Below are positions 21,087-29,401 of a DNA stretch of 64,000 bases, piece by piece. The notes beneath the pieces were generated by a model. That model searched no databases, was not told the DNA's origin, and saw nothing but the letters and a program-made list of their open reading frames with translations. This DNA comes from Candidatus Binatia bacterium (lineage in GTDB: Bacteria > Desulfobacterota > Binatia > UBA9968 > JAJDTQ01). The position numbers and the translations under genes are program-made. Where the stretch lies: positions 704,001 through 768,000 of the forward strand of contig OY762897.2 in the NCBI GenBank assembly GCA_963666515.2, given 5' to 3'. Position 1 is the first letter of the stretch, and every line of letters starts with the position of its first letter.

Positions 21087-22052
21087 CTACCTCTCGGGAC
21101 GACGGGCGTTCATCCTGCTTCCAAGCCTGATGGGGTGCTCCGGGTGGAGCGTCCTGAAGCCTGCGATGGAGACCCACACCCGCAAGAGATGGCGGCCGGC
21201 GCCGTCGGCGGCGAACCGGGTGCGCGTGTGCAGGACCACATGGTTGTTGAAGTATTCGATGTCGCCGGGCTGGAGTTCCAGGGAAACCGCGACCTCGTCG
21301 GCTACGGTATTGAAGACTTCGAGAGCGCGGTTCTGGGCCTCGGTCAGCTCGGGGACTCCGGCCAGTTTCTGCGCCCGTCTGATGTGGACCGGGAAGGCGC
21401 AGGCGTTGAACACGCCGCGGTGAACGCTCAGGAACGGCAGCCGGGTCCACGGGTGGGCGTGGTCCGGATGCGGGTGCGGCAACGCCACGTGAAACGGCCG
21501 GGTGAGCACGCGCAACCGCTCGGGATACTCCGCCGCCAGGATGTTGTAGACGGTGGCGGCGCTGGCGAACCTGCGGGTTCCGCCGGCGCGGGCGGGGCTC
21601 AGGCAGAGGAAGCCGATGACGTCTTCGGGGTCGGCGTGAAAGGGAAGCTCGCCGGTCGCGCGAAATCCCAACCGGTCGCGGTTATCGGACTCCGCCCGTA
21701 CGTGCGCCATCCGCACCCCTCCCGGCTGCTCGGCGATATCGCCCAGCAGTCCGCTCAGGGCCGAGAAGGCGCCGGCGACCTCCGGCTCGTTCAGGCTCGT
21801 CAACGGCAGACCCCGGAGGATCCGGAAACCGAGACCGGACTTGAGTTCACGGGCGGTGGCCGCCATCTGCGAAGCCAGCAGCGGCCGGCGGGGCGTCTTC
21901 CGAGGCCCGGCTACGGGCGCTTCCCGCGCCAACGCCGAAAGCTCCGCCAGTTCGCCGCCGGTGAAGTGATGGCGCCAGGCTTCCGACCGTTCGATGTCGC
22001 CCGGCGCCCAGGCCGCGGGGTCTGCCGTCCTTGGAAACTCTCTCGCGTCCAT
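21087..22052 (-). CDS. TauD/TfdA-family Fe(II)/2-oxoglutarate dioxygenase (clavaminate-synthase-like)
   Basis: GFRILRGLP, FHAD (HxD), LQPGDIEYFNNHVVLHTR (distal His), RHLLRVW. Confidence 0.88.
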   Translation of the reverse strand: MDAREFPRTADPAAWAPGDIERSEAWRHHFTGGELAELSALAREAPVAGPRKTPRRPLLASQMAATARELKSGLGFRILRGLPLTSLNEPEVAGAFSALSGLLGDIAEQPGGVRMAHVRAESDNRDRLGFRATGELPFHADPEDVIGFLCLSPARAGGTRRFASAATVYNILAAEYPERLRVLTRPFHVALPHPHPDHAHPWTRLPFLSVHRGVFNACAFPVHIRRAQKLAGVPELTEAQNRALEVFNTVADEVAVSLELQPGDIEYFNNHVVLHTRTRFAADGAGRHLLRVWVSIAGFRTLHPEHPIRLGSRMNARRPER

Positions 22053-22071
22053 GGCCCTGCAAGCGATGGCG

Positions 22072-23409
22072 TCACTTTTCGCGGAAGGCGTCCTGCCGGT
22101 AGCCCCGGAGGGGTTGCAGGACGTATTCGATGACGCGTTGCGTGCCGAGGATGAGCGCGGCTTCCGCGGCCATTCCGGGCAGCAGTTCGACTTTCTGCCC
22201 CTCGATCTCCATGTAGGTCCGGTCGAGATCGATGAGCGCCTTGAACACGGGGCCGGCCGGCCCGGGCTGCGGAGCGGTTGCCGGGCCGGCGCCGGCCGCG
22301 ACGTTCCCGGGCGCCGGCGAGCCGCCCTGAGCCCCTGCGTTCACCGCATCCTTGCCCACGTGGCTCACCGTGCCCTCGATGGCGCCGTAGCGGCGGAAGT
22401 CGAAGGTCGCCACCTTGAGGGTGACCCGCTGGCCGGGCTTCACGAAGCCGATGTCGGTGTTGGCGACGAAGGCCTCCACGCGGACCCCGGCGTTGCCGGG
22501 TACGATCACCATGAGGCGGGCGCCGGGCTCCACCATGCCGTTCTCCGTGTGCACGGCGAGGTCCTGGACCACGCCGTCCACCGGCGACCGCAGGGTGTGC
22601 CGGGCGCGGTGCTCCCGCGCCTGGCGGAGATCCTGCCGCAGCACGATCATCCTTTCGCGAACGGCCGCGAGGGTGGAACGGCGTTCCCGGTAGAACTCGG
22701 AGGCGGCGCGTTCCTTCTGCGCCCGGATCCCCGCCAGAGAGGCCGTGACCTCGGTCAGCTCCCTGCGGCGCAGCGCGATGTCGCCCTCCAGCTCCACCAG
22801 CCGCTCCTGCTCTTCGAAAAGAGCCAGTCGGGAGCCGTGGTCCCTGCGGTACAGGGTCTCGCGCATGGCCGTCCGCTCGCGCAGAATGGGCAGCAGGCTC
22901 CTGTGCTTGGCGAGCGCGGCCTCGATGGTGAGGAGTTGCGCGCGACGCTCCGCCATCACGCCGTCCAGTTCGTGGAGACGCGCCCGGTGCGCCGCGACCT
23001 GATCCGCCAGGAGCGCCTTGTTGACGGAGACGATCTCCGGCGGGGCGCCGGCGGGCGGGTGGAAAGGCAGGGCCTTGCGCCACGCCAGGGCGGCCTCGAG
23101 GCGCGCGGCTTCCACGGACTTGATTTGAAGCTCGGCGGCGAGCTTGGAGATCTCGGCGTCCACCAGGGTCGTGTCGATCTCGATCAGCACGTCGTCCTGC
23201 TCGACCGGGGTTCCTTCCTCGACGGCGATGCGGCTGATCTTGCCCTGCTCGAAGGACCGGATGACCTTCACCTGCCCGGTGGGCACGATGCGGCCCGGAG
23301 CCACCGCGGCCAGTTCGACCTCCGCCACCGACGCCCACGTCAGGGTGGCGACGAGAAAGACGCAAAGCGCTACGAGCAGGAGGACGTCCGGGCGATGGAA
23401 TCTCTTCAC
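22072..23409 (-). CDS. HlyD-family type I secretion membrane-fusion (adaptor) protein
   Basis: N-terminal TM, APGRIVPTG, lipoyl half-motifs, long coiled coil, LRSPVDGVV, DIGFVKPGQ, FDFRRYGAIEG, LLPGM, RVIEYVLQPL. Confidence 0.93.
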   Translation of the reverse strand: MKRFHRPDVLLLVALCVFLVATLTWASVAEVELAAVAPGRIVPTGQVKVIRSFEQGKISRIAVEEGTPVEQDDVLIEIDTTLVDAEISKLAAELQIKSVEAARLEAALAWRKALPFHPPAGAPPEIVSVNKALLADQVAAHRARLHELDGVMAERRAQLLTIEAALAKHRSLLPILRERTAMRETLYRRDHGSRLALFEEQERLVELEGDIALRRRELTEVTASLAGIRAQKERAASEFYRERRSTLAAVRERMIVLRQDLRQAREHRARHTLRSPVDGVVQDLAVHTENGMVEPGARLMVIVPGNAGVRVEAFVANTDIGFVKPGQRVTLKVATFDFRRYGAIEGTVSHVGKDAVNAGAQGGSPAPGNVAAGAGPATAPQPGPAGPVFKALIDLDRTYMEIEGQKVELLPGMAAEAALILGTQRVIEYVLQPLRGYRQDAFREK

Positions 23410-23852
23410 GCGGAGCTCCCGAGGCCCTCCCCTCTCGACCGCCGCAACCGGACCCCCTTCTCACCGGCCCACAGGAGAGAACAGGCCGCGGCGGCAAGCA
23501 CAAGAGCGGCCCGCCACCATCCGAGGACGTCCCCGACCTCCCACCAGTGGAACAGCGTCGTCACTTCACCCGCGGCCAGGGCGAGCAACATCAAGGCCGG
23601 CAGGGCGTACGGTCTGACGAGCCGGTTCAAGGAGGCTGCGATCACGAAGACGAAGATCGAAAACAGCATCGCGCCGACCACCGCGCTGCCGGCGGACCTG
23701 CCGTGGTACTCCACAAGCCACGCCGTCTGCCCCATGAGCCAGAATGCTCCGGCAACGACGGCGAAGCACGCTGCCCGCGATATCCTGAGATACCGGCTGA
23801 ACTTGTCGTCCCCTTCCCTGTGGCGGAAGGCTCCCATGAACTCGAATTGCAT
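23406..23852 (-). CDS. Small 4-TM membrane protein (candidate immunity/accessory protein)
   Basis: AGGAGG RBS; four hydrophobic segments; 4-bp overlap with hlyD start. Confidence 0.7.
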   Translation of the reverse strand: MQFEFMGAFRHREGDDKFSRYLRISRAACFAVVAGAFWLMGQTAWLVEYHGRSAGSAVVGAMLFSIFVFVIAASLNRLVRPYALPALMLLALAAGEVTTLFHWWEVGDVLGWWRAALVLAAAACSLLWAGEKGVRLRRSRGEGLGSSA

Positions 23853-23904
23853 CGTTGCCTCCTGTAACGGTCACGTTTCCATGATTCCTGCATCGAACGG
23901 GTAA

Positions 23905-23936
23905 GGCGACGGGGGATGCGTGAATCCCCCGTCGCC
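23905..23936 (-). terminator. Strong intercistronic hairpin (mRNA stabiliser or leaky terminator) after the precursor gene
   Basis: Perfect 13-bp stem GGCGACGGGGGAT-gcgtga-ATCCCCCGTCGCC; only a short T tail on the minus strand. Confidence 0.7.
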
Positions 23937-23979
23937 GTTCTGGCCATGCCGCAAACGCTGCTTCGTGACGGCGGTTGAC

Positions 23980-24447
23980 CTATGGCATTCCCATTGCGTT
24001 GTTCATGTCCTGGGCGGCCTCGTCGGGATCGATGGCGCAGTTGGGACTGGTTACCAGCGTGCCGATGGCGCCCGTAGCCGCACCCGCGGCGGTTCCGAGA
24101 ACAGCGCCTCCGCCCGTCACGATGGTGGCGGTCCCTCCCAAGGCCGCGCCCACCGTAGCGTCCACCGCGACGTCGGTGCCACACGAGCCTCCCGAATCGG
24201 TGTCGTCGCTGCCACCGAGATTCGATGACACCGCGTCATCGTAGTCGTCCGCGCTCATGTTGTCCTCGTCGTCCGAGCTGCACGAGCAACTGGAACAACT
24301 GCAGCTACACCCGCAGCCACATCCGCACCCGCAGCCACATCCGCACCCGCATCCGTGGATCTCCAGGTCCAGCTCGTCCTCCCGCGCATCGAGCAGCCAG
24401 GGAACGGCTACCGGCCCCTTTTCGATGGAATGGTTGAAGAGTTGCAT
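23980..24447 (-). CDS. Cys-rich putative secreted peptide precursor: (GC)8 tract + acidic spacer + glycine-zipper bacteriocin-like segment
   Basis: AAGGAG RBS 7 nt before ATG; synonymous codons vary along the repeat; first gene of the membrane protein-hlyD-tauD run. Confidence 0.8.
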   Translation of the reverse strand: MQLFNHSIEKGPVAVPWLLDAREDELDLEIHGCGCGCGCGCGCGCGCSCSCSSCSCSSDDEDNMSADDYDDAVSSNLGGSDDTDSGGSCGTDVAVDATVGAALGGTATIVTGGGAVLGTAAGAATGAIGTLVTSPNCAIDPDEAAQDMNNAMGMP

Positions 24448-24736
24448 TTCGTATCTCCTTCCTGGTTTGGATTGTTGAGCGTGCTATCGCCGCCCACATA
24501 AGATTAAATCGGCCAGGTGGAGTCGAAACTTTAGGGGAAATTTCGCGGTCAAGGCATTTTTCTGCACAGCGGTCACCGGCCGCGGGGGACGACGACCGGT
24601 GACTGCGCCTCGTTGCTGCGAAAAAGTGGGATGGATGAGTGTGGCGGGCCGGGGCTAGTCTGAAGTTCTGAGGCCAAGACAGCGTAAGTGGTTGAATTTA
24701 GGGGGAATAGGATTGAGACGGCAGTACGGGTTCTGA

Positions 24737-26497
24737 CTACACGGGGAGTTTGAGGTGGAGGAGTTCCAAGGCGAGGCGTTGGAGGTCGGTGGGGAGGGTG
24801 AGTTGTTGGAAGGTCAGCTTTGAGCCTTGGAGTTGAAGGGTATTGCGGGTGAGGGTGGCCAAGTGGCGGAGCAGACCGCGGAAGTGGTGCACGGGTTGCC
24901 CCTGTGGGGTTCGGCGGGTGGCGGCTTTGCGCTCGGAGCTGTGGGAGGGCACGCTGGGGCTGACGGGGGAGGGGCGGCGGCGAGCGGCGTCCTGGGGGTC
25001 GTCTTCGGCGAACAAGAGTGGAGCCCAGGCTCGCCGCATGTGCCACTCGACGTAGTAGGCGAGCATGCACAGGAAGACGTGGGCGCGCACGCGCTGGGAC
25101 AGGCGGTGGTGGATCGGGCGCACGTGGAGGTCCACGGTCTTGAGGCATCGGAAGGCGCGCTCGACTGCGGCGAGGCGTTTATAGGCGCTGACGGTGGAAG
25201 TGGCATCGAGGAGGGGCTCAGGGACGGAGGTGCGGATGACGTAGAGGCCGTCGAGGCGGGCCTCTTGAGCGATGGCGTCGGATTTGCGCTGATAGCGGAA
25301 CGAGGACTCGGTGACGGTCATGTCGAAGTGCTTGGCCATCTTGAAGCGGCCCAACACCCGGCCCACCCGCAGTGCGATGGCGCTCTCACCGCGAAGCGGT
25401 CGTTTGGGGCGTTGGGTGGCCCGGACGATCTTGTCCAGTTCCTGCTCGGTGGCGTCCAGCAGGGCTTGGCGTTTGCGCCGACGCTCCTGGCACAGCAGGG
25501 GGTTGAGGCAGGCGATGAGGCGTTCGCCGGGGAAGTCTGGATGAGCGATTTCAGCCAGGTCGGTGTGGTCGAACAGGGACGACTGCAAGGGGCCTTGGTC
25601 TTGGGCGAGCTTGGCGACGGCATCGCTGCGTAGTGCACTGATCCAGTCCAGACCCTCCACCGGGCGCAGTTCCTCGTCGATGCGCGCACTGGTCAACATT
25701 CCCCGATCGCCGACGAACACCACACGCTCGAGCCCGAAGCGCTCGCGGACCTTGTGGATCTGGTCCGCCAAAGTGCTCGGGTCAGCGGTGTTGCCCTCGT
25801 AGACCTCCACCGCCACCGGACAGCCGTCGGCGTTGCACAGTAGTCCGTAGACGATCTGCAGCTTGCCTTTCTTGCCGTCCCGCGAGTAGCCGATGCGCCC
25901 CAGCGGGCAGCGCCGCCCTTCGAGATAGCTCGAAGTCACGTCGTAGAGCACCAGCGTGCCGTGGTGGAGATGGCGCTTGGCCAGACTGCGTTCGATGCGC
26001 CCCTGACGCTCCCCCAGCCAGTCCATGGCCTCATACAACTCTTCGGCCTGCACCGCCTCAAGGCCGAGTTCCTCGCCCAGGGTGGACGTCGCACTCTCGG
26101 CATCCAACGCCCGCGCCGTGGCCAGCTTCGAGTCCGGACACAGCACCCGGGACACGATCAAGGCCACACTACGGTCGCGTTGGACGCTGTGCCGAGAGTC
26201 CAGCAGCCGCTCCAGCCCCAGCGCCTTGACCGTGCCCAGCACCGCAGCCACGTGTCCATGGGGGCGTGAGCGCAACACTTGCAATGCCTCCTCGGCCGGC
26301 ACCAGGGTCTTGCCGCCGAGTGCGAGGCGCACCAGTTCCACCACCGAATCGGGCAGGTGGGAGAGGTTGCCGACGGTTTCGTTTTTGACCTTGCCGTTTT
26401 CGCGGTAGGAGCGCCTGAGCAGGTGGGTGGTGTAGACTCGGTCTTTGTATCGACGCGTGGTAGTAACGACGTGTACGGCGGCCTTGCGTCTTGGCAT
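24737..26497 (-). CDS. tnp: IS1634-family DDE transposase
   Basis: LLRRSYRENGKVKNETVGNLS, LYDVTSSY, GYSRDGK, VFVGDRGM, VERAFRCLK, VRAHVFLCMLAY. Confidence 0.93.
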   Translation of the reverse strand: MPRRKAAVHVVTTTRRYKDRVYTTHLLRRSYRENGKVKNETVGNLSHLPDSVVELVRLALGGKTLVPAEEALQVLRSRPHGHVAAVLGTVKALGLERLLDSRHSVQRDRSVALIVSRVLCPDSKLATARALDAESATSTLGEELGLEAVQAEELYEAMDWLGERQGRIERSLAKRHLHHGTLVLYDVTSSYLEGRRCPLGRIGYSRDGKKGKLQIVYGLLCNADGCPVAVEVYEGNTADPSTLADQIHKVRERFGLERVVFVGDRGMLTSARIDEELRPVEGLDWISALRSDAVAKLAQDQGPLQSSLFDHTDLAEIAHPDFPGERLIACLNPLLCQERRRKRQALLDATEQELDKIVRATQRPKRPLRGESAIALRVGRVLGRFKMAKHFDMTVTESSFRYQRKSDAIAQEARLDGLYVIRTSVPEPLLDATSTVSAYKRLAAVERAFRCLKTVDLHVRPIHHRLSQRVRAHVFLCMLAYYVEWHMRRAWAPLLFAEDDPQDAARRRPSPVSPSVPSHSSERKAATRRTPQGQPVHHFRGLLRHLATLTRNTLQLQGSKLTFQQLTLPTDLQRLALELLHLKLPV

Positions 26498-26504
26498 ACA
26501 TGGG

Positions 26505-26532
26505 ATTGTAGCACAATCACCGAATGAGTCAA
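26505..26532 (-). promoter_or_regulatory. Transposase promoter (sigma70-like, extended -10)
   Basis: Minus strand TTGACT-N16-TACAAT with TG preceding; ATG 7 nt downstream. Confidence 0.55.
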
Positions 26533-26645
26533 GTCTATTTAGTGACTACATGTTACGCCTGAAATCTGCCCTTGAATCCCCAAATGTCTATCCAATACAA
26601 TGAGTTAGAGGCTGTCAGGCCGGAATCCGGCCCCAGAACTTCAGG

Positions 26646-27299
26646 CTAGTGCGCCACCTGGGCCATGGCCATGGTGATGGACTCTTCGATTTCGGCGATG
26701 ACGGCGCCCACCTCGCGCCCGATGAGGTCCATGACGCGGAGTTGCTCGACACGGGGACGCACCCGCTCCATCTCGCGTTCCGAGAAGATGTCGCTCAGGA
26801 TGTCGCAGGCGTCCACCAGGCAGACCAGCGCCACGTCCCGCGGGTCGGGCATGTCGTCGGACAGCAGCACGTCCTCCATGCGCAGCTTGACGCCCCGTTG
26901 CACCCGCCCGTCGATGGTGGGATAGCGGCGGGAATGGAACACCCACAGGAACTTCTCGTCCTTGGCCTCCAGAATGCCCCGTTCGACGAGGCTGTCCATG
27001 GCCCGCTGGCGGACGTCGGCGGCGTGCTCCCGGGCCAGCACCTCCACCCAGGCCTTGGTGCTCATGGTTTCCCCGGCGTTGGCGATGCGCTCCAGTGAGC
27101 CGTCCAGCAGGGGGTTGCCGGTGGGTGTCGAGTCGAGGACCTGAAGCTTCTCGGGGTCGGTGTCGATGCGGTTGGCGAAGGCCAGGTCCATCAGCACCGC
27201 CCCCACCAGGATGTGCTCCACCGCACCGCCCCGGATGGGCAGGAACAGGCCGTCGTCGTCCAGCATCAACAGCAGGATTTCTTCCGTGAACGTAAGCAT
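26646..27299 (-). CDS. GPP34 (GOLPH3/Vps74-like) family protein
   Basis: LTFTEEILLLMLDDD, GAVLMDLAFANRI, PTGNPLLD, LVERGIL, FLWVFHSRRYP. Confidence 0.85.
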   Translation of the reverse strand: MLTFTEEILLLMLDDDGLFLPIRGGAVEHILVGAVLMDLAFANRIDTDPEKLQVLDSTPTGNPLLDGSLERIANAGETMSTKAWVEVLAREHAADVRQRAMDSLVERGILEAKDEKFLWVFHSRRYPTIDGRVQRGVKLRMEDVLLSDDMPDPRDVALVCLVDACDILSDIFSEREMERVRPRVEQLRVMDLIGREVGAVIAEIEESITMAMAQVAH

Positions 27300-27308
27300 G
27301 CGCCTGAC

Positions 27309-27641
27309 CTATTCTGCCGCGAGGGCGGCGTCACGGGTTTCGTGGTATTCAAGCATGTTGAGGAAGCCGCTCACCTCCATCACCGATTTGCACGAGGGCT
27401 GGAGCGCGCACACGGCCAGCTTGCCGCCTTCGTTCTGGCACTTCTTCGCGCTGACGAGGACCACCCGCAGTCCGGCGCTGCTGATGTACTCCATGTTCTC
27501 GCAATCCAGCAGCACGCGATGGTCGCCGCGCTCAATGATCTCCGAGATCCGCTTCTCGAGCTCCGGGCTGGTGAAACCGTCGACGCGCCCGTTCGGGGCC
27601 ACCACCACCAAGGATCCTTTGGTTTCCTCTTGAATGTCCAT
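27309..27641 (-). CDS. STAS-domain anti-sigma-factor antagonist
   Basis: GRVD, VLLDCENMEYISSAGLRVVL (phosphorylatable Ser), VMEVSGF; true start MDIQEE at 27641. Confidence 0.92.
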   Translation of the reverse strand: MDIQEETKGSLVVVAPNGRVDGFTSPELEKRISEIIERGDHRVLLDCENMEYISSAGLRVVLVSAKKCQNEGGKLAVCALQPSCKSVMEVSGFLNMLEYHETRDAALAAE

Positions 27642-27710
27642 CCGGCACCTTTTCTTCCGGTTTCGACAGACCCTGCCAACAGCTATCGCGGCATTGTTGC
27701 CAACAAGTGA

Positions 27711-27724
27711 TTGATCGATATCAA
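27711..27724. promoter_or_regulatory. FNR/CRP-family binding site (consensus FNR box)
   Basis: TTGAT-CGAT-ATCAA, intergenic, 70 bp upstream of the STAS gene. Confidence 0.6.
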
Positions 27725-27829
27725 TGTGGCCCACGTATACCACAGGGGCAAGGCTTGGGCAACAAGCCCGCAGCCGCCAATTCCGCCAGGAGCGGTCACG
27801 AAACGTCAACCGTTCATGCCGCGCGGGCG

Positions 27830-29401
27830 TTACTTCTTGCCGGGCTCGAATCCTCCCTGCTCGTGGTACACGATCTTCTTGTCTTCCTCGAACGCCCGGA
27901 CCGATGGAATGGTCCCGCGCAGGCCGAGTTCCTTCCAGCGCTCGGCCACTTGGTCGTACATCTCCCGCCTCAGCGTGGTGCGCTTGGAGAACACCGGCAG
28001 GTAGCGGTGTTCCTTGCAGGCGTTGATCAGCGCCTTGGACCCGTAGGGCCGCTCTTCCGGCGGGTTCTGGGTCGGGTCCAGCCACGTGCTCCAGGTGTTG
28101 CGCAGCAGGTCGATGTCCTCGATGGGGTTGCAGCGGCTGCTCATGGCCCAGATCACTTGGTCCATGTCGGTGGGGTCGATGTCCTCGTCCACCGCGATGA
28201 TCCACTTGGTGTAGTAGGCGCCGCCCGGCACCTGGGCCGCCAGGGCCAGACACTGGGCCGCGTGGCCGGCGTAGCGCTGTTCCAGGCTGATGACGGTCAT
28301 GCCGAAGCCCCCGGCGCCGGCCGGGTGGGCGTAGACGCCCTGAACGCCCGGTATGCCGAGCTTGTCCAGGTCGTCCCAGATGCGCGCCGACCGGATGACC
28401 GCGAAGAAGCCGCTCTGCTCGCAGGACGGGTAGTCCGCCATGATGGCGTTGGTGAGCACGGGGTTGGAGCGGTAGTGCACCCGGGTGATGTCCACCAGCG
28501 GGCATCCGGCTTCCGGCCTGCCGTAATATCCGGGGAACTCCCCGAACGGTCCCTCGGTCTTCACCGAGTTGGGGTGGATGACCCCCTCGACCACCAGCTC
28601 GGCGTTGGCCGGCAGCAGCAGGTCGCTGGTCTGGGCCCGCACCACCGGGATGGCCTCGCCCTTGATGCCGCCGGCGAACTCGTACTCCGACACGTTCTTG
28701 GGAAAGGTCTGGGAGCCCACCAGCATGAACAGCGGGTCGATGCCCCAGGCCGCGGCCACGGGCACGGACTCGCCCTTTTCCCAGTAGCGGGTGATGTGCA
28801 GCCGCGCGTCCTTGCCCGGCGACAGGTAGAGCCCCACCTGCTGCTTGCCCTGGAACATCATCCGGTAGGTGCCCACGTTCAGGTATCCGGAATCCGGATC
28901 GCGGGTGAACACTGCGTCCGCGGTGCCGGCGTAACGGCCACCGTCCAGGGGCCAGTGCCTGGGGATGGGAAGCTCTTCCAGGTCGATGTCCGCTCCTTCG
29001 AGGGTGTTCTCGTAGACCGGAGCCTCGGCGGCCGGCACCTCGCGCGGCGGGATGCGGTCCTTCATCTTGTCCTTGAGCCGGCGGATCAGCTCCAGCGTCG
29101 GCGTCTCGGGGGGCTCCTCGATGGTCAGGGCGATGCGCTTGGAGCTGGGGCCCAGGATGTTCCACAGCATCCGCGCGCCGATGGCGCTGTCCTCATACCC
29201 CCTGGGGTTGTCGAACAGGATGGCCGGGGACGGGTTCTGCTTGGCGACGAGGTAGGTGATGGCGCTCATCTCCTCGTCCCGGTCCACCGGCTTGTCGATC
29301 TGGACCAGCTCGTTGATGCCTTCCGCGCGGTCCAGCCACTCGCGGAGATCCTGAATCGGACGGCCTGCCGCCGCCGGCTCCGTCCTGTTCGCTTCGGCCA
29401 T
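27830..29401 (-). CDS. UbiD-family (prFMN-dependent) decarboxylase
   Basis: DLREWL, DGGRY, NVGTYR, ELVVEG, EGPFGEFPGYY, IIAVDEDIDP. Confidence 0.92.
   Translation of the reverse strand: MAEANRTEPAAAGRPIQDLREWLDRAEGINELVQIDKPVDRDEEMSAITYLVAKQNPSPAILFDNPRGYEDSAIGARMLWNILGPSSKRIALTIEEPPETPTLELIRRLKDKMKDRIPPREVPAAEAPVYENTLEGADIDLEELPIPRHWPLDGGRYAGTADAVFTRDPDSGYLNVGTYRMMFQGKQQVGLYLSPGKDARLHITRYWEKGESVPVAAAWGIDPLFMLVGSQTFPKNVSEYEFAGGIKGEAIPVVRAQTSDLLLPANAELVVEGVIHPNSVKTEGPFGEFPGYYGRPEAGCPLVDITRVHYRSNPVLTNAIMADYPSCEQSGFFAVIRSARIWDDLDKLGIPGVQGVYAHPAGAGGFGMTVISLEQRYAGHAAQCLALAAQVPGGAYYTKWIIAVDEDIDPTDMDQVIWAMSSRCNPIEDIDLLRNTWSTWLDPTQNPPEERPYGSKALINACKEHRYLPVFSKRTTLRREMYDQVAERWKELGLRGTIPSVRAFEEDKKIVYHEQGGFEPGKK

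Follow-up and report, generated by a model that had tools for sequence, protein, structure and literature searches.

MNIO enzymes (oxidative enzymes that depend on multinuclear non-heme iron) have so far been tied mainly to Sec-exported copper-binding peptides. According to the available part of PMC13097082, the MNIOs that form 5-thiooxazoles favour a Cys-Gly dyad, and the structure 3BWW belongs to a large, copper-associated MNIO-PME1 group whose products carry 5-thiooxazoles. The available part of PMC12452194 describes a further group, adjamnio-I, as 100 proteins of 122-293 residues with 8-21 cysteines and no known signature, encoded in the order precursor, MNIO and PME-type 2. The locus analysed here lies in a 64,000-nucleotide stretch of a Candidatus Binatia bacterium genome (assembly GCA_963666515.2, contig OY762897.2, positions 704,001 to 768,000 of the forward strand), hereafter the window. 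It is composed of genes for a Cys-Gly-repeat precursor (pre), a protein with four transmembrane segments (4-TM protein, mem), an HlyD-family adaptor and a TauD-family oxygenase. If our reading is true, the locus joins MNIO enzymes to polymorphic bacteriocin-type toxins.

Two groups of toxins provide the other points of reference. The siderophore-microcins (MccE492, H47 and M) and class II microcins are exported by ABC-HlyD-TolC machinery, are encoded beside a small membrane immunity protein, and place a chelator on a membrane-active peptide. The chelator of the siderophore-microcins is a C-terminal catecholate attached through glycosyltransferase-type enzymes, and an active C39 domain removes their leader. 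Polymorphic toxin systems, as reported by Zhang, Aravind and colleagues in 2012, combine a constant N terminus with variable C-terminal domains, are followed by tail-specific downstream genes and also occur as stand-alone modules. We know of no described polymorphic toxin family that has, as its constant module, a leader-plus-core enzyme substrate of the type found in RiPPs (peptides made by the ribosome and modified after translation).

We consider it reasonably probable that the genes in the window are half of a system spread over two loci, which produces a modified toxin-like protein and exports it. Comparison with related genomes shows how the genes are linked, that the architecture is modular and to which families the parts belong.

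The window operon and the MNIO block

The genes pre, mem, HlyD and TauD lie in this order on the minus strand (Table 1), as the initial annotation of the window had described, and its further details are also found. The 155-residue reading frame of pre contains exactly eight Gly-Cys units. Strong ribosome-binding sites precede pre (AGGAAGGAG, 7 nt 5' of the ATG) and mem (ACAGGAGG, 5 nt 5' of the ATG). The mem stop shares 4 bp with the GTG start of HlyD, and a gap of 19 bp separates HlyD from TauD. The hairpin between pre and mem is perfect and has a folding energy of -28.9 kcal/mol, compared with -17.0 +/- 2.0 in shuffled sequences. A strong hairpin lies 3' of the precursor in all 14 precursor/4-TM-gene pairs examined in relatives; the sequences vary and the stem is kept. 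The hairpin would probably leave the precursor transcript in excess over those of the downstream genes.

Layouts were read from 20-kb regions around the HlyD-TauD pairs of relatives, and fall into two types. In layout A, of which the window is an example, the genes occupy a fixed chromosomal slot flanked by an EutA-like gene and a GPP34-family gene. A long precursor, a 4-TM gene, HlyD and TauD fill this slot in six genomes including the present one; the four-gene order recurs in five further genomes of the genus. A short precursor with HlyD and TauD is present at the slot in L050, and the same short operon is found in L080 and L081. HlyD and TauD stand alone in four genomes, and the precursor and 4-TM gene alone in three. 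In L067 (G021), a 4-TM gene and a tail open reading frame (ORF) without a leader come after HlyD and TauD. One genome, G006, carries a decayed copy at the slot, with a degenerate 68-residue precursor and no TauD. These layouts support pre, mem, HlyD and TauD as one conserved unit.

Layout B is found elsewhere. It is sequentially composed of a precursor, a 4-TM gene or both, then the MNIO, its partner, an ABC transporter, HlyD and TauD, with overlapping or closely spaced genes. Complete operons, from a precursor/4-TM gene through MNIO, partner, ABC and HlyD to TauD, are present in L055, L057-L066, L068 and L111. The layout-B MNIO scores 236-240 bits against PF05114, and the precursor lies upstream of it by 7 nt in L057 and by 98 nt in L058.

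The present genome encodes a single MNIO (C1:664073-664954, PF05114 248 bits). It is part of an MNIO-partner-ABC block at C1:661.5-665.0 kb, about 63 kb from pre and outside the window. The MNIO and the 261-residue partner occupy C1:663.3-665.0 kb, and the 599-residue ABC C1:661.5-663.3 kb. No precursor, HlyD or TauD is found beside the MNIO locus, nor is another Cys-rich ORF, by tblastn or in the ORF list of the region. The split layout recurs in 11 other species examined at the same two chromosomal slots, with the MNIO-partner-ABC block between the same flanking genes, indicating that the split is old and stable. Across the 27 genomes of the genus, the precursor is present in 26, HlyD in 26, an orthologous TauD in 26 and the MNIO in 25. 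All four are missing from G014 (2.7 Mb); the remaining genome that lacks an MNIO, G019, has a completeness of only 76%.

The MNIO and its partner lie directly between the precursor and ABC-HlyD-TauD in relatives, which makes the MNIO, and not TauD, the likely main maturase. TauD had initially been named the only local tailoring candidate. The window indeed contains no MNIO or YcaO, but the MNIO is joined to the system in relatives and lies at a distance here. The closest solved structure to the MNIO is 3BWW (E 1.5e-35), followed by TglH (8HCI) and, weakly, by MbnB (E 1.8e-6). By analogy, its products on Cys-Gly dyads would probably be thiooxazole-type heterocycles.

The partner was modeled with a pLDDT of 70.8, and its C-terminal beta/alpha domain is mostly above 80. 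The model matches the folds of TglI (E 5.8e-7 and 1.3e-5) and NGO1945 (E 4.9e-4). The next match has an E-value of 0.29, and MbnC ranks only 14th (E 2.1). As it has no Pfam DUF2063 match, the partner is PME-type-2-like in the terms of PMC12452194. Complex predictions of the MNIO, the partner and precursor residues 1-62 scored 0.71, 0.72 and 0.71; the two controls with a replaced precursor scored 0.00 and the control with a replaced MNIO 0.65, and the predictions are not used as evidence.

Gly-Cys- and Gly-Ser-rich cores are substrates of McbBCD-type cyclodehydratases, and the genome encodes a single YcaO (562 kb), which lies with a C39-ABC at C1:560-572 kb. This YcaO might turn the Gly-Cys and Ser-Cys dyads into thiazoles and oxazoles, yielding an azole peptide like microcin B17. 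However, no YcaO adjoins a precursor in any of the loci examined, whereas the MNIO and its partner do, and the YcaO locus, at a distance of 165 kb, comes with transporters of its own. Such a product is extremely improbable. The YcaO locus itself (L069, G000:C1:560000-579999) is a separate RiPP-like cluster outside the window. It encodes a YcaO with a winged-helix N terminus, a true C39-ABC, a 976-residue second ABC, an MMPL transporter, a LolA-like protein and a tryptophan-halogenase-like protein, and contains no HlyD.

The precursor family and its variable tails

Members of the precursor family share a common plan. First comes a leader, next a stretch of dyads (Cys-Gly, Cys-Ser or Cys-Ala) with about 8 to 25 cysteines and then an acidic spacer, after which the members diverge. 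In pre, the eight Gly-Cys units follow the sequence ...LDLEIH and are succeeded by Ser-Cys dyads. The leader is invariant at M1, W17, L26, D27, L28 and G32 in 24 sequences and is followed by CGCGC. Its dN/dS is 0.32 (219 pairs) and falls to 0.03 over residues 25-37 (184 pairs), dS being saturated; by this comparison the leader is subject to purifying selection. After the leader, no feature is as conserved as the Cys run. Its length differs among relatives, and it is written in mixed synonymous Gly and Cys codons, indicating that the repeat is kept at the protein level and not through DNA slippage. The selection on the leader, the mixed codons and the recurring hairpin show that the arrangement exceeds chance. 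The N terminus of the precursor has no hydrophobic segment and no Sec signal peptide. The end of the leader, ...LDLEIHG before the first Cys, fits the double-glycine consensus only loosely in spacing. An AlphaFold model of the entire precursor was of low confidence (mean pLDDT 48.6) and was not used.

The precursor homologues, often multicopy where present, are confined to few organisms. Outside the genus, 33 genomes representing 13 further genera of the order gave one weak match (E 5e-4). Among 5.8 billion proteins, a word-indexed search returned 26 matches, and a profile of the 40 N-terminal residues returned 27 among 1.84 billion cluster representatives. A pattern scan covering one genome per prokaryotic species yielded 22 loci, all in metagenome-assembled genomes titled Candidatus Binatia, 'Deltaproteobacteria' or 'Thermodesulfobacteriota', and several of these share coordinates with the same-genus genomes. 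As far as these searches reach, the family appears to be very small and to occur almost only in one uncultured Binatia genus. Neither pre nor mem matches any Pfam or NCBIfam model, in keeping with the initial view that the peptide is of an unrecognised type.

A precursor, a hairpin, a small transmembrane immunity gene and HlyD form a classical bacteriocin layout, and a type I secretion system (T1SS) of Caulobacter exports glycine-rich hydrophobic bacteriocins with transmembrane immunity proteins, apparently unmodified (available part of PMC5380434). The product could likewise be an unmodified bacteriocin of the Cdz or class II microcin kind, its Gly-Cys run serving as a linker, a disulfide site or a metal site and the MNIO locus and TauD serving another purpose. 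The interruption of the MNIO in two split-layout genomes, detailed below, would fit. Opposed to this are the placement of the MNIO directly 3' of the precursor in relatives, the absence of another Cys-rich ORF from the genome's MNIO locus, the conservation of the Cys run second only to the leader, and the presence of TauD after HlyD in 31 of 32 cases. An unmodified bacteriocin is distinctly unlikely.

The tails are of several types, and each type has its own downstream gene. The tail of pre is a Cys-bracketed, Gly/Ala-rich hydrophobic segment, an architecture that recurs in most long relatives and is followed by the 4-TM protein. The second tail type contains the motif TSGxxGxH...SxHYxGxAxD...HxHxExD. 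A profile of this type matches the Hedgehog N-terminal domain at the zinc-binding core (E 4e-5), a domain with a LAS-type peptidase fold; single sequences stay below the Pfam cut-off. The third tail type is followed by Sel1-repeat proteins (Pfam Sel1 E 1e-59 and 2.5e-74), and the fourth by an unrelated small transmembrane protein of 123-139 residues. In addition, extra stand-alone modules of a precursor and a 4-TM gene occur away from the enzyme and export genes.

Homologues of the 4-TM protein are present in 20 of the 27 genus genomes, usually beside a precursor, and the gene is absent beside tail-less precursors. Across 13 pairs, tail identity and 4-TM identity form the same clusters (Spearman 0.33, a value reached by 14 of 2000 Mantel permutations). 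The 4-TM protein thus behaves like a putative immunity protein, a role first proposed from the gene order and strengthened by its change with tail type and its absence where the tail is absent. A cluster search in the Protein Atlas placed the 4-TM protein in generic small membrane-protein clusters only, with recognition below the mark. An NCBIfam match to a Shiga-toxin subunit (E 0.004, 16 bits against a cut-off of 715) was dismissed as chance.

A constant N terminus, variable tails and tail-specific downstream genes constitute the grammar of polymorphic toxin/immunity systems. The family is therefore a putative polymorphic toxin with cognate immunity genes, whose N-terminal module can stand alone. 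The product, initially seen as an exported peptide, is not a small classical microcin: it is a 155-residue protein with a swappable C-terminal domain.

Tail-less precursors of 45-81 residues, made of a leader, a Cys run and a short acidic end, are found at L050:8227-8412, L080:4387-4605 and L081:10001-10246, and also in L086, L096, P0035 and P0038. Those of L050, L080 and L081 (61-81 residues) lie directly 5' of HlyD-TauD, with 124-219 bp between and no 4-TM gene, a distance too short to hold an immunity gene. They resemble classical RiPP precursors and may represent the ancestral form.

Tail-less members that keep HlyD and TauD would also be compatible with a non-toxic, captophorin-like protein that uses its Cys tract, modified or not, to buffer or scavenge a metal, be it copper or another, on the surface of the cell. 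The hydrophobic C terminus would then be only a membrane or surface anchor and the 4-TM protein an accessory, analogous to the DoxX of bufferins. The MNIO is nearest the 3BWW type of the copper-associated thiooxazole group (available part of PMC13097082), and bufferin clusters carry DoxX, a small membrane protein (available part of PMC12452194). However, the 4-TM protein has no DoxX or other Pfam match, and its gene is missing exactly where the tail is missing. The swapped tails, one of them zinc-peptidase-like, with their own downstream genes and stand-alone modules display a pattern typical of toxins and not of metal buffers, and the Sec signal peptide of bufferins is lacking. We hold a purely metal-handling role to be unlikely.

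Type I secretion, TauD and the IS1634-family insertion

Export by a T1SS, proposed in the initial annotation, is indicated by the HlyD of the window, which scores 333 bits against TIGR01843 (cut-off 209) and is the only T1SS-type copy in the genome. The ABC of the genome is 76% identical to the layout-B ABC that adjoins HlyD, and its best bacterial solved match is HlyB (386 bits). With a single OEP/TolC-like gene, all T1SS parts (HlyD, HlyB-type ABC and TolC-like factor) are present, at three separate loci.

Long forms of the ABC possess a C39-like domain at the N terminus; judged against the genome's true C39-ABC, it has Ser instead of the catalytic Cys and Arg instead of the His. Its Pfam C39 score is 21.1 bits, against a cut-off of 22. 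The C39-like domain being non-catalytic or absent, the ABC is not expected to cleave the leader. Cleavage by the one true C39-ABC of the genome (C1:570 kb) was rejected: it shows no linkage to any precursor among the loci examined. A secreted S9 (prolyl-oligopeptidase-family) peptidase of about 650-685 residues recurs in L034, L035, L038, L039, L042, L044, L045, L055, L057, L058, L068, L112 and L113. It lies right after precursor/4-TM modules, after TauD, or between the precursor and the MNIO, and is a candidate processing protease there. It was rejected as the leader protease of the present genome, which holds no homologue at E 1e-20.

TauD lies directly 3' of 31 of 32 full-length HlyD matches. 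Its H139, D141, H275 and R287 are invariant in 17 sequences, and the HxD...H iron triad is intact. Among 401 sampled genomes, which cover 146 genera of the class, an orthologue is present in 25 of 26 genomes of the genus and in none elsewhere. Identity within the orthologous clade falls as low as about 49%, and a gap lies between the clade and the relatives at no more than 38%; a protein search showed clade members at 49-57%. A first metagenome scan gave no confirmed relative, and a second one, with an alignment as query, gave just same-genus orthologues (64-74% identity) and distant TauDs (at most 39%), so that no genomic context was recovered for the clade members at 49-57%.

TauD is probably a second tailoring enzyme. 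Aspartate hydroxylases dependent on Fe(II) and 2-oxoglutarate that act on Gly-rich acidic motifs are known in RiPPs (available part of PMC12186529). Tail-less precursors retain TauD, so its target should be in the leader, the Cys run or the acidic stretch. Three metagenome contigs (L121, L123 and L126) contain LapA-like operons encoding an RTX/cadherin adhesin, an ABC with a C39-like domain, HlyD, a BTLCP peptidase, a PAS-HD protein and TauD. The presence of TauD in RTX-adhesin operons suggests that the link between T1SS and TauD may have a more general meaning, and outside the precursor family, too, TauD enzymes may repeatedly accompany type I secretion.

An insertion sequence (IS) of the IS1634 family, located 208 bp upstream of pre, abuts the stop of the GPP34-family gene. 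The genome contains five copies of the family with 98.8-100% protein identity. An IS-free joint (24652 to 26644) is present in contigs of all four sequencing runs examined, with short sides of 23-31 nt. The IS-free form is minor in runs X1-X3 and is the sole form in the related strain of run X5. The insertion looks recent and polymorphic. The close strain of run X5, on a contig about 97% identical, displays a 12-nt deletion at 23947, between the pre stop and the hairpin. It also has an in-frame 6-nt deletion at 24286 in the Cys run and substitutions clustered at 24310-24340. By the slot in L030, L031 and L053, the GPP34-family gene and the C-terminal STAS part of the adjoining 618-residue gene are duplicated (relatives of window positions 26646-29165). 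The pattern suggests repeated rearrangement at the slot, which may be an insertion hot spot.

Table 1. Positions of the system's features and of the neighbouring insertion, counted from the first letter of the window
Feature	Position	Strand	Basis
pre (precursor, 155 residues)	23980-24447	minus	ORF with strong ribosome-binding site
pre leader, residues 1-32 (...PW.L......LDLEIHG)	24352-24447	minus	invariant residues, dN/dS
pre Cys run, residues 33-56, (Cys-Gly)7-8 then Cys-Ser dyads	24280-24351	minus	presumed MNIO core
pre C-terminal Gly/Ala-rich hydrophobic segment between Cys89 and Cys137	24037-24183	minus	sequence reading; putative membrane-active toxin module
Hairpin between pre and mem, perfect 13-bp stem and 6-nt loop	23905-23936	minus	inverted repeat
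mem (4-TM protein, 148 residues), putative immunity protein for the hairpin-type tail	23406-23852	minus	four hydrophobic segments
HlyD-family type I secretion adaptor (445 residues)	22072-23409	minus	TIGR01843 333 bits
TauD/TfdA-family Fe(II)/2-oxoglutarate oxygenase (321 residues)	21087-22052	minus	PF02668 E 1.4e-33
IS1634-family insertion (context only, outside the system)	24655-26649	minus	21-bp inverted repeats; transposase NF033559 308 bits

Proposed product and comparison with known systems

In the two-locus reading, the pre product would have four parts: a 32-residue recognition leader, a run of dyads (Cys-Gly and Cys-Ser), an acidic spacer and a hydrophobic hairpin that is rich in Gly/Ala and bracketed by Cys. 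The TglI/NGO1945-like partner, through a domain like a RiPP recognition element, would bind the leader, and the MNIO would oxidise the repeat cysteines sequentially. The products would most likely be 5-thiooxazoles like those of bufferins, oxazolin and fontiphorin, and together they would form an uninterrupted tract that binds metal. More tentatively, TauD may hydroxylate a residue in the constant N-terminal module. Export would proceed via the HlyB-like ABC, which has no peptidase domain, the HlyD of the window and the single TolC-like protein. The C-terminal hairpin would then harm the membrane of a competitor, with the 4-TM protein shielding the producer.

Several observations weigh against this reading. 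First, the window itself contains no MNIO, partner or ABC, and action in trans over 63 kb is deduced from conserved co-occurrence alone. Moreover, the MNIO match carries one in-frame TAG in 2 of 12 split-layout genomes (G005:C1:2112641-2113522 and G011:C1:2287464-2288345), where the MNIO may be dispensable or decaying, unless the TAG reflects an assembly error or recoding. Second, the partner has no Pfam match at all, DUF2063 included. Third, the co-variation of tail and 4-TM protein is confounded by relatedness (leader identity against tail identity, rho 0.53), and neither the window-type tail nor the 4-TM protein has a match among known toxin or immunity families. Fourth, the nearest solved relatives of TauD are 7N7V, a 'predicted hydroxylase', and the small-molecule hydroxylase FrbJ, and TauDs 33-35% identical to it occur in unrelated RTX-adhesin T1SS operons of other bacteria. 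Finally, the ABC of the genome lacks the N-terminal 160 residues that form the C39-like domain, no leader protease was identified in the genome, and the IS lies close upstream of pre.

The last points could also mean that the system is a decaying remnant in the present genome, with a split operon, a shortened ABC, a nearby IS and window genes that no longer work together. Clear decay at the same slot, in G006, provides a precedent. Nevertheless, the reading frames of all seven genes are intact, and the split layout is kept across at least 12 species. The short ABC recurs in five other split-layout genomes and three fused operons, which makes it a stable variant. About 200 bp upstream of pre are intact despite the IS, and IS-free forms coexist with it. 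A remnant is very unlikely.

A more specific mode of action can be envisaged for the modified toxin-like protein. The MNIO-made poly-thiooxazole chelate might be imported by a metallophore receptor and, like a Trojan horse, drag the fused toxic tail into the target; the tail-less precursors would then be the free metallophore out of which the toxins arose. This is a doubtful proposition, but if true, the product would be a ribosomal, modular counterpart of siderophore-microcins.

If the two-locus reading is true, a RiPP leader-plus-core acts as a constant delivery module for swappable toxins, an MNIO can process up to about 25 consecutive Cys-Gly dyads, and a T1SS adaptor has a TauD-type oxygenase as its constant companion. 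The biosynthetic genes are split about 63 kb apart over two conserved loci, and would thus be missed by cluster-based genome miners. The genus is uncultured and without experimental genetics, which leaves heterologous reconstitution as the sole route; all seven genes for it are now identified.

The system shares several features with the captophorins (bufferins, oxazolin and fontiphorin), namely a 3BWW-type MNIO, a partner of the NGO1945/TglI fold and, in the available part of PMC13097082, a Cys-rich repetitive core with Cys followed by Gly. However, it differs in three respects. First, it has no Sec signal peptide, no DUF2063 signature (TglI being the best fold match) and no DoxX. Second, it has HlyB/HlyD export, TauD, a fused variable toxin-like tail and an immunity-like gene. 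Third, its repeat is a bare (CG)n and not EGKCG. Since it lacks both that peptide and that signature, it does not count as a bufferin, even if the chemistry of the two might be similar.

Adjamnio-I fits in size, Cys count and gene order, and, compared by description only, may be the same or a related family. Toxin tails and immunity genes are not described for it in the available part of PMC12452194, the main text of which contains neither 'ABC transporter' nor 'TauD', and 'secretion' once. A literature search did not find the combination of MNIO and HlyD in print; the adjamnio-I alignment (Fig. S3, PMC12452194 supplement) may contain the family.

The methanobactins (MbnA/B/C) are similar in having an MNIO that acts on Cys plus a small residue and a leader-binding partner, but their precursors are about 30 residues long with two modified Cys, and their transport is different.

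Among the bacteriocins, Cdz of Caulobacter (CdzC/D-CdzI-CdzAB) similarly combines T1SS-exported, glycine-zipper-type hydrophobic bacteriocin-like proteins with a small multi-transmembrane immunity protein. The Cdz proteins, compared by description only, are 84-86 residues long, have no Cys repeat, are reported as probably unmodified and are accompanied by no MNIO or TauD (both statements from the available part of PMC5380434).

Unlike in the siderophore-microcins, the presumed chelating tract is N-terminal and ribosomal, and the C39-like domain has Cys changed to Ser and His to Arg, or is absent. Without a catalytic C39 domain, the product is also not a double-glycine bacteriocin. All of the features listed above for polymorphic toxins are present, with export by a T1SS instead of a T5, T6 or T7 secretion system. 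By analogy, the system is most like a hybrid of MNIO metallophore peptides and T1SS bacteriocins with membrane immunity proteins. It is a new combination built from known kinds of parts.

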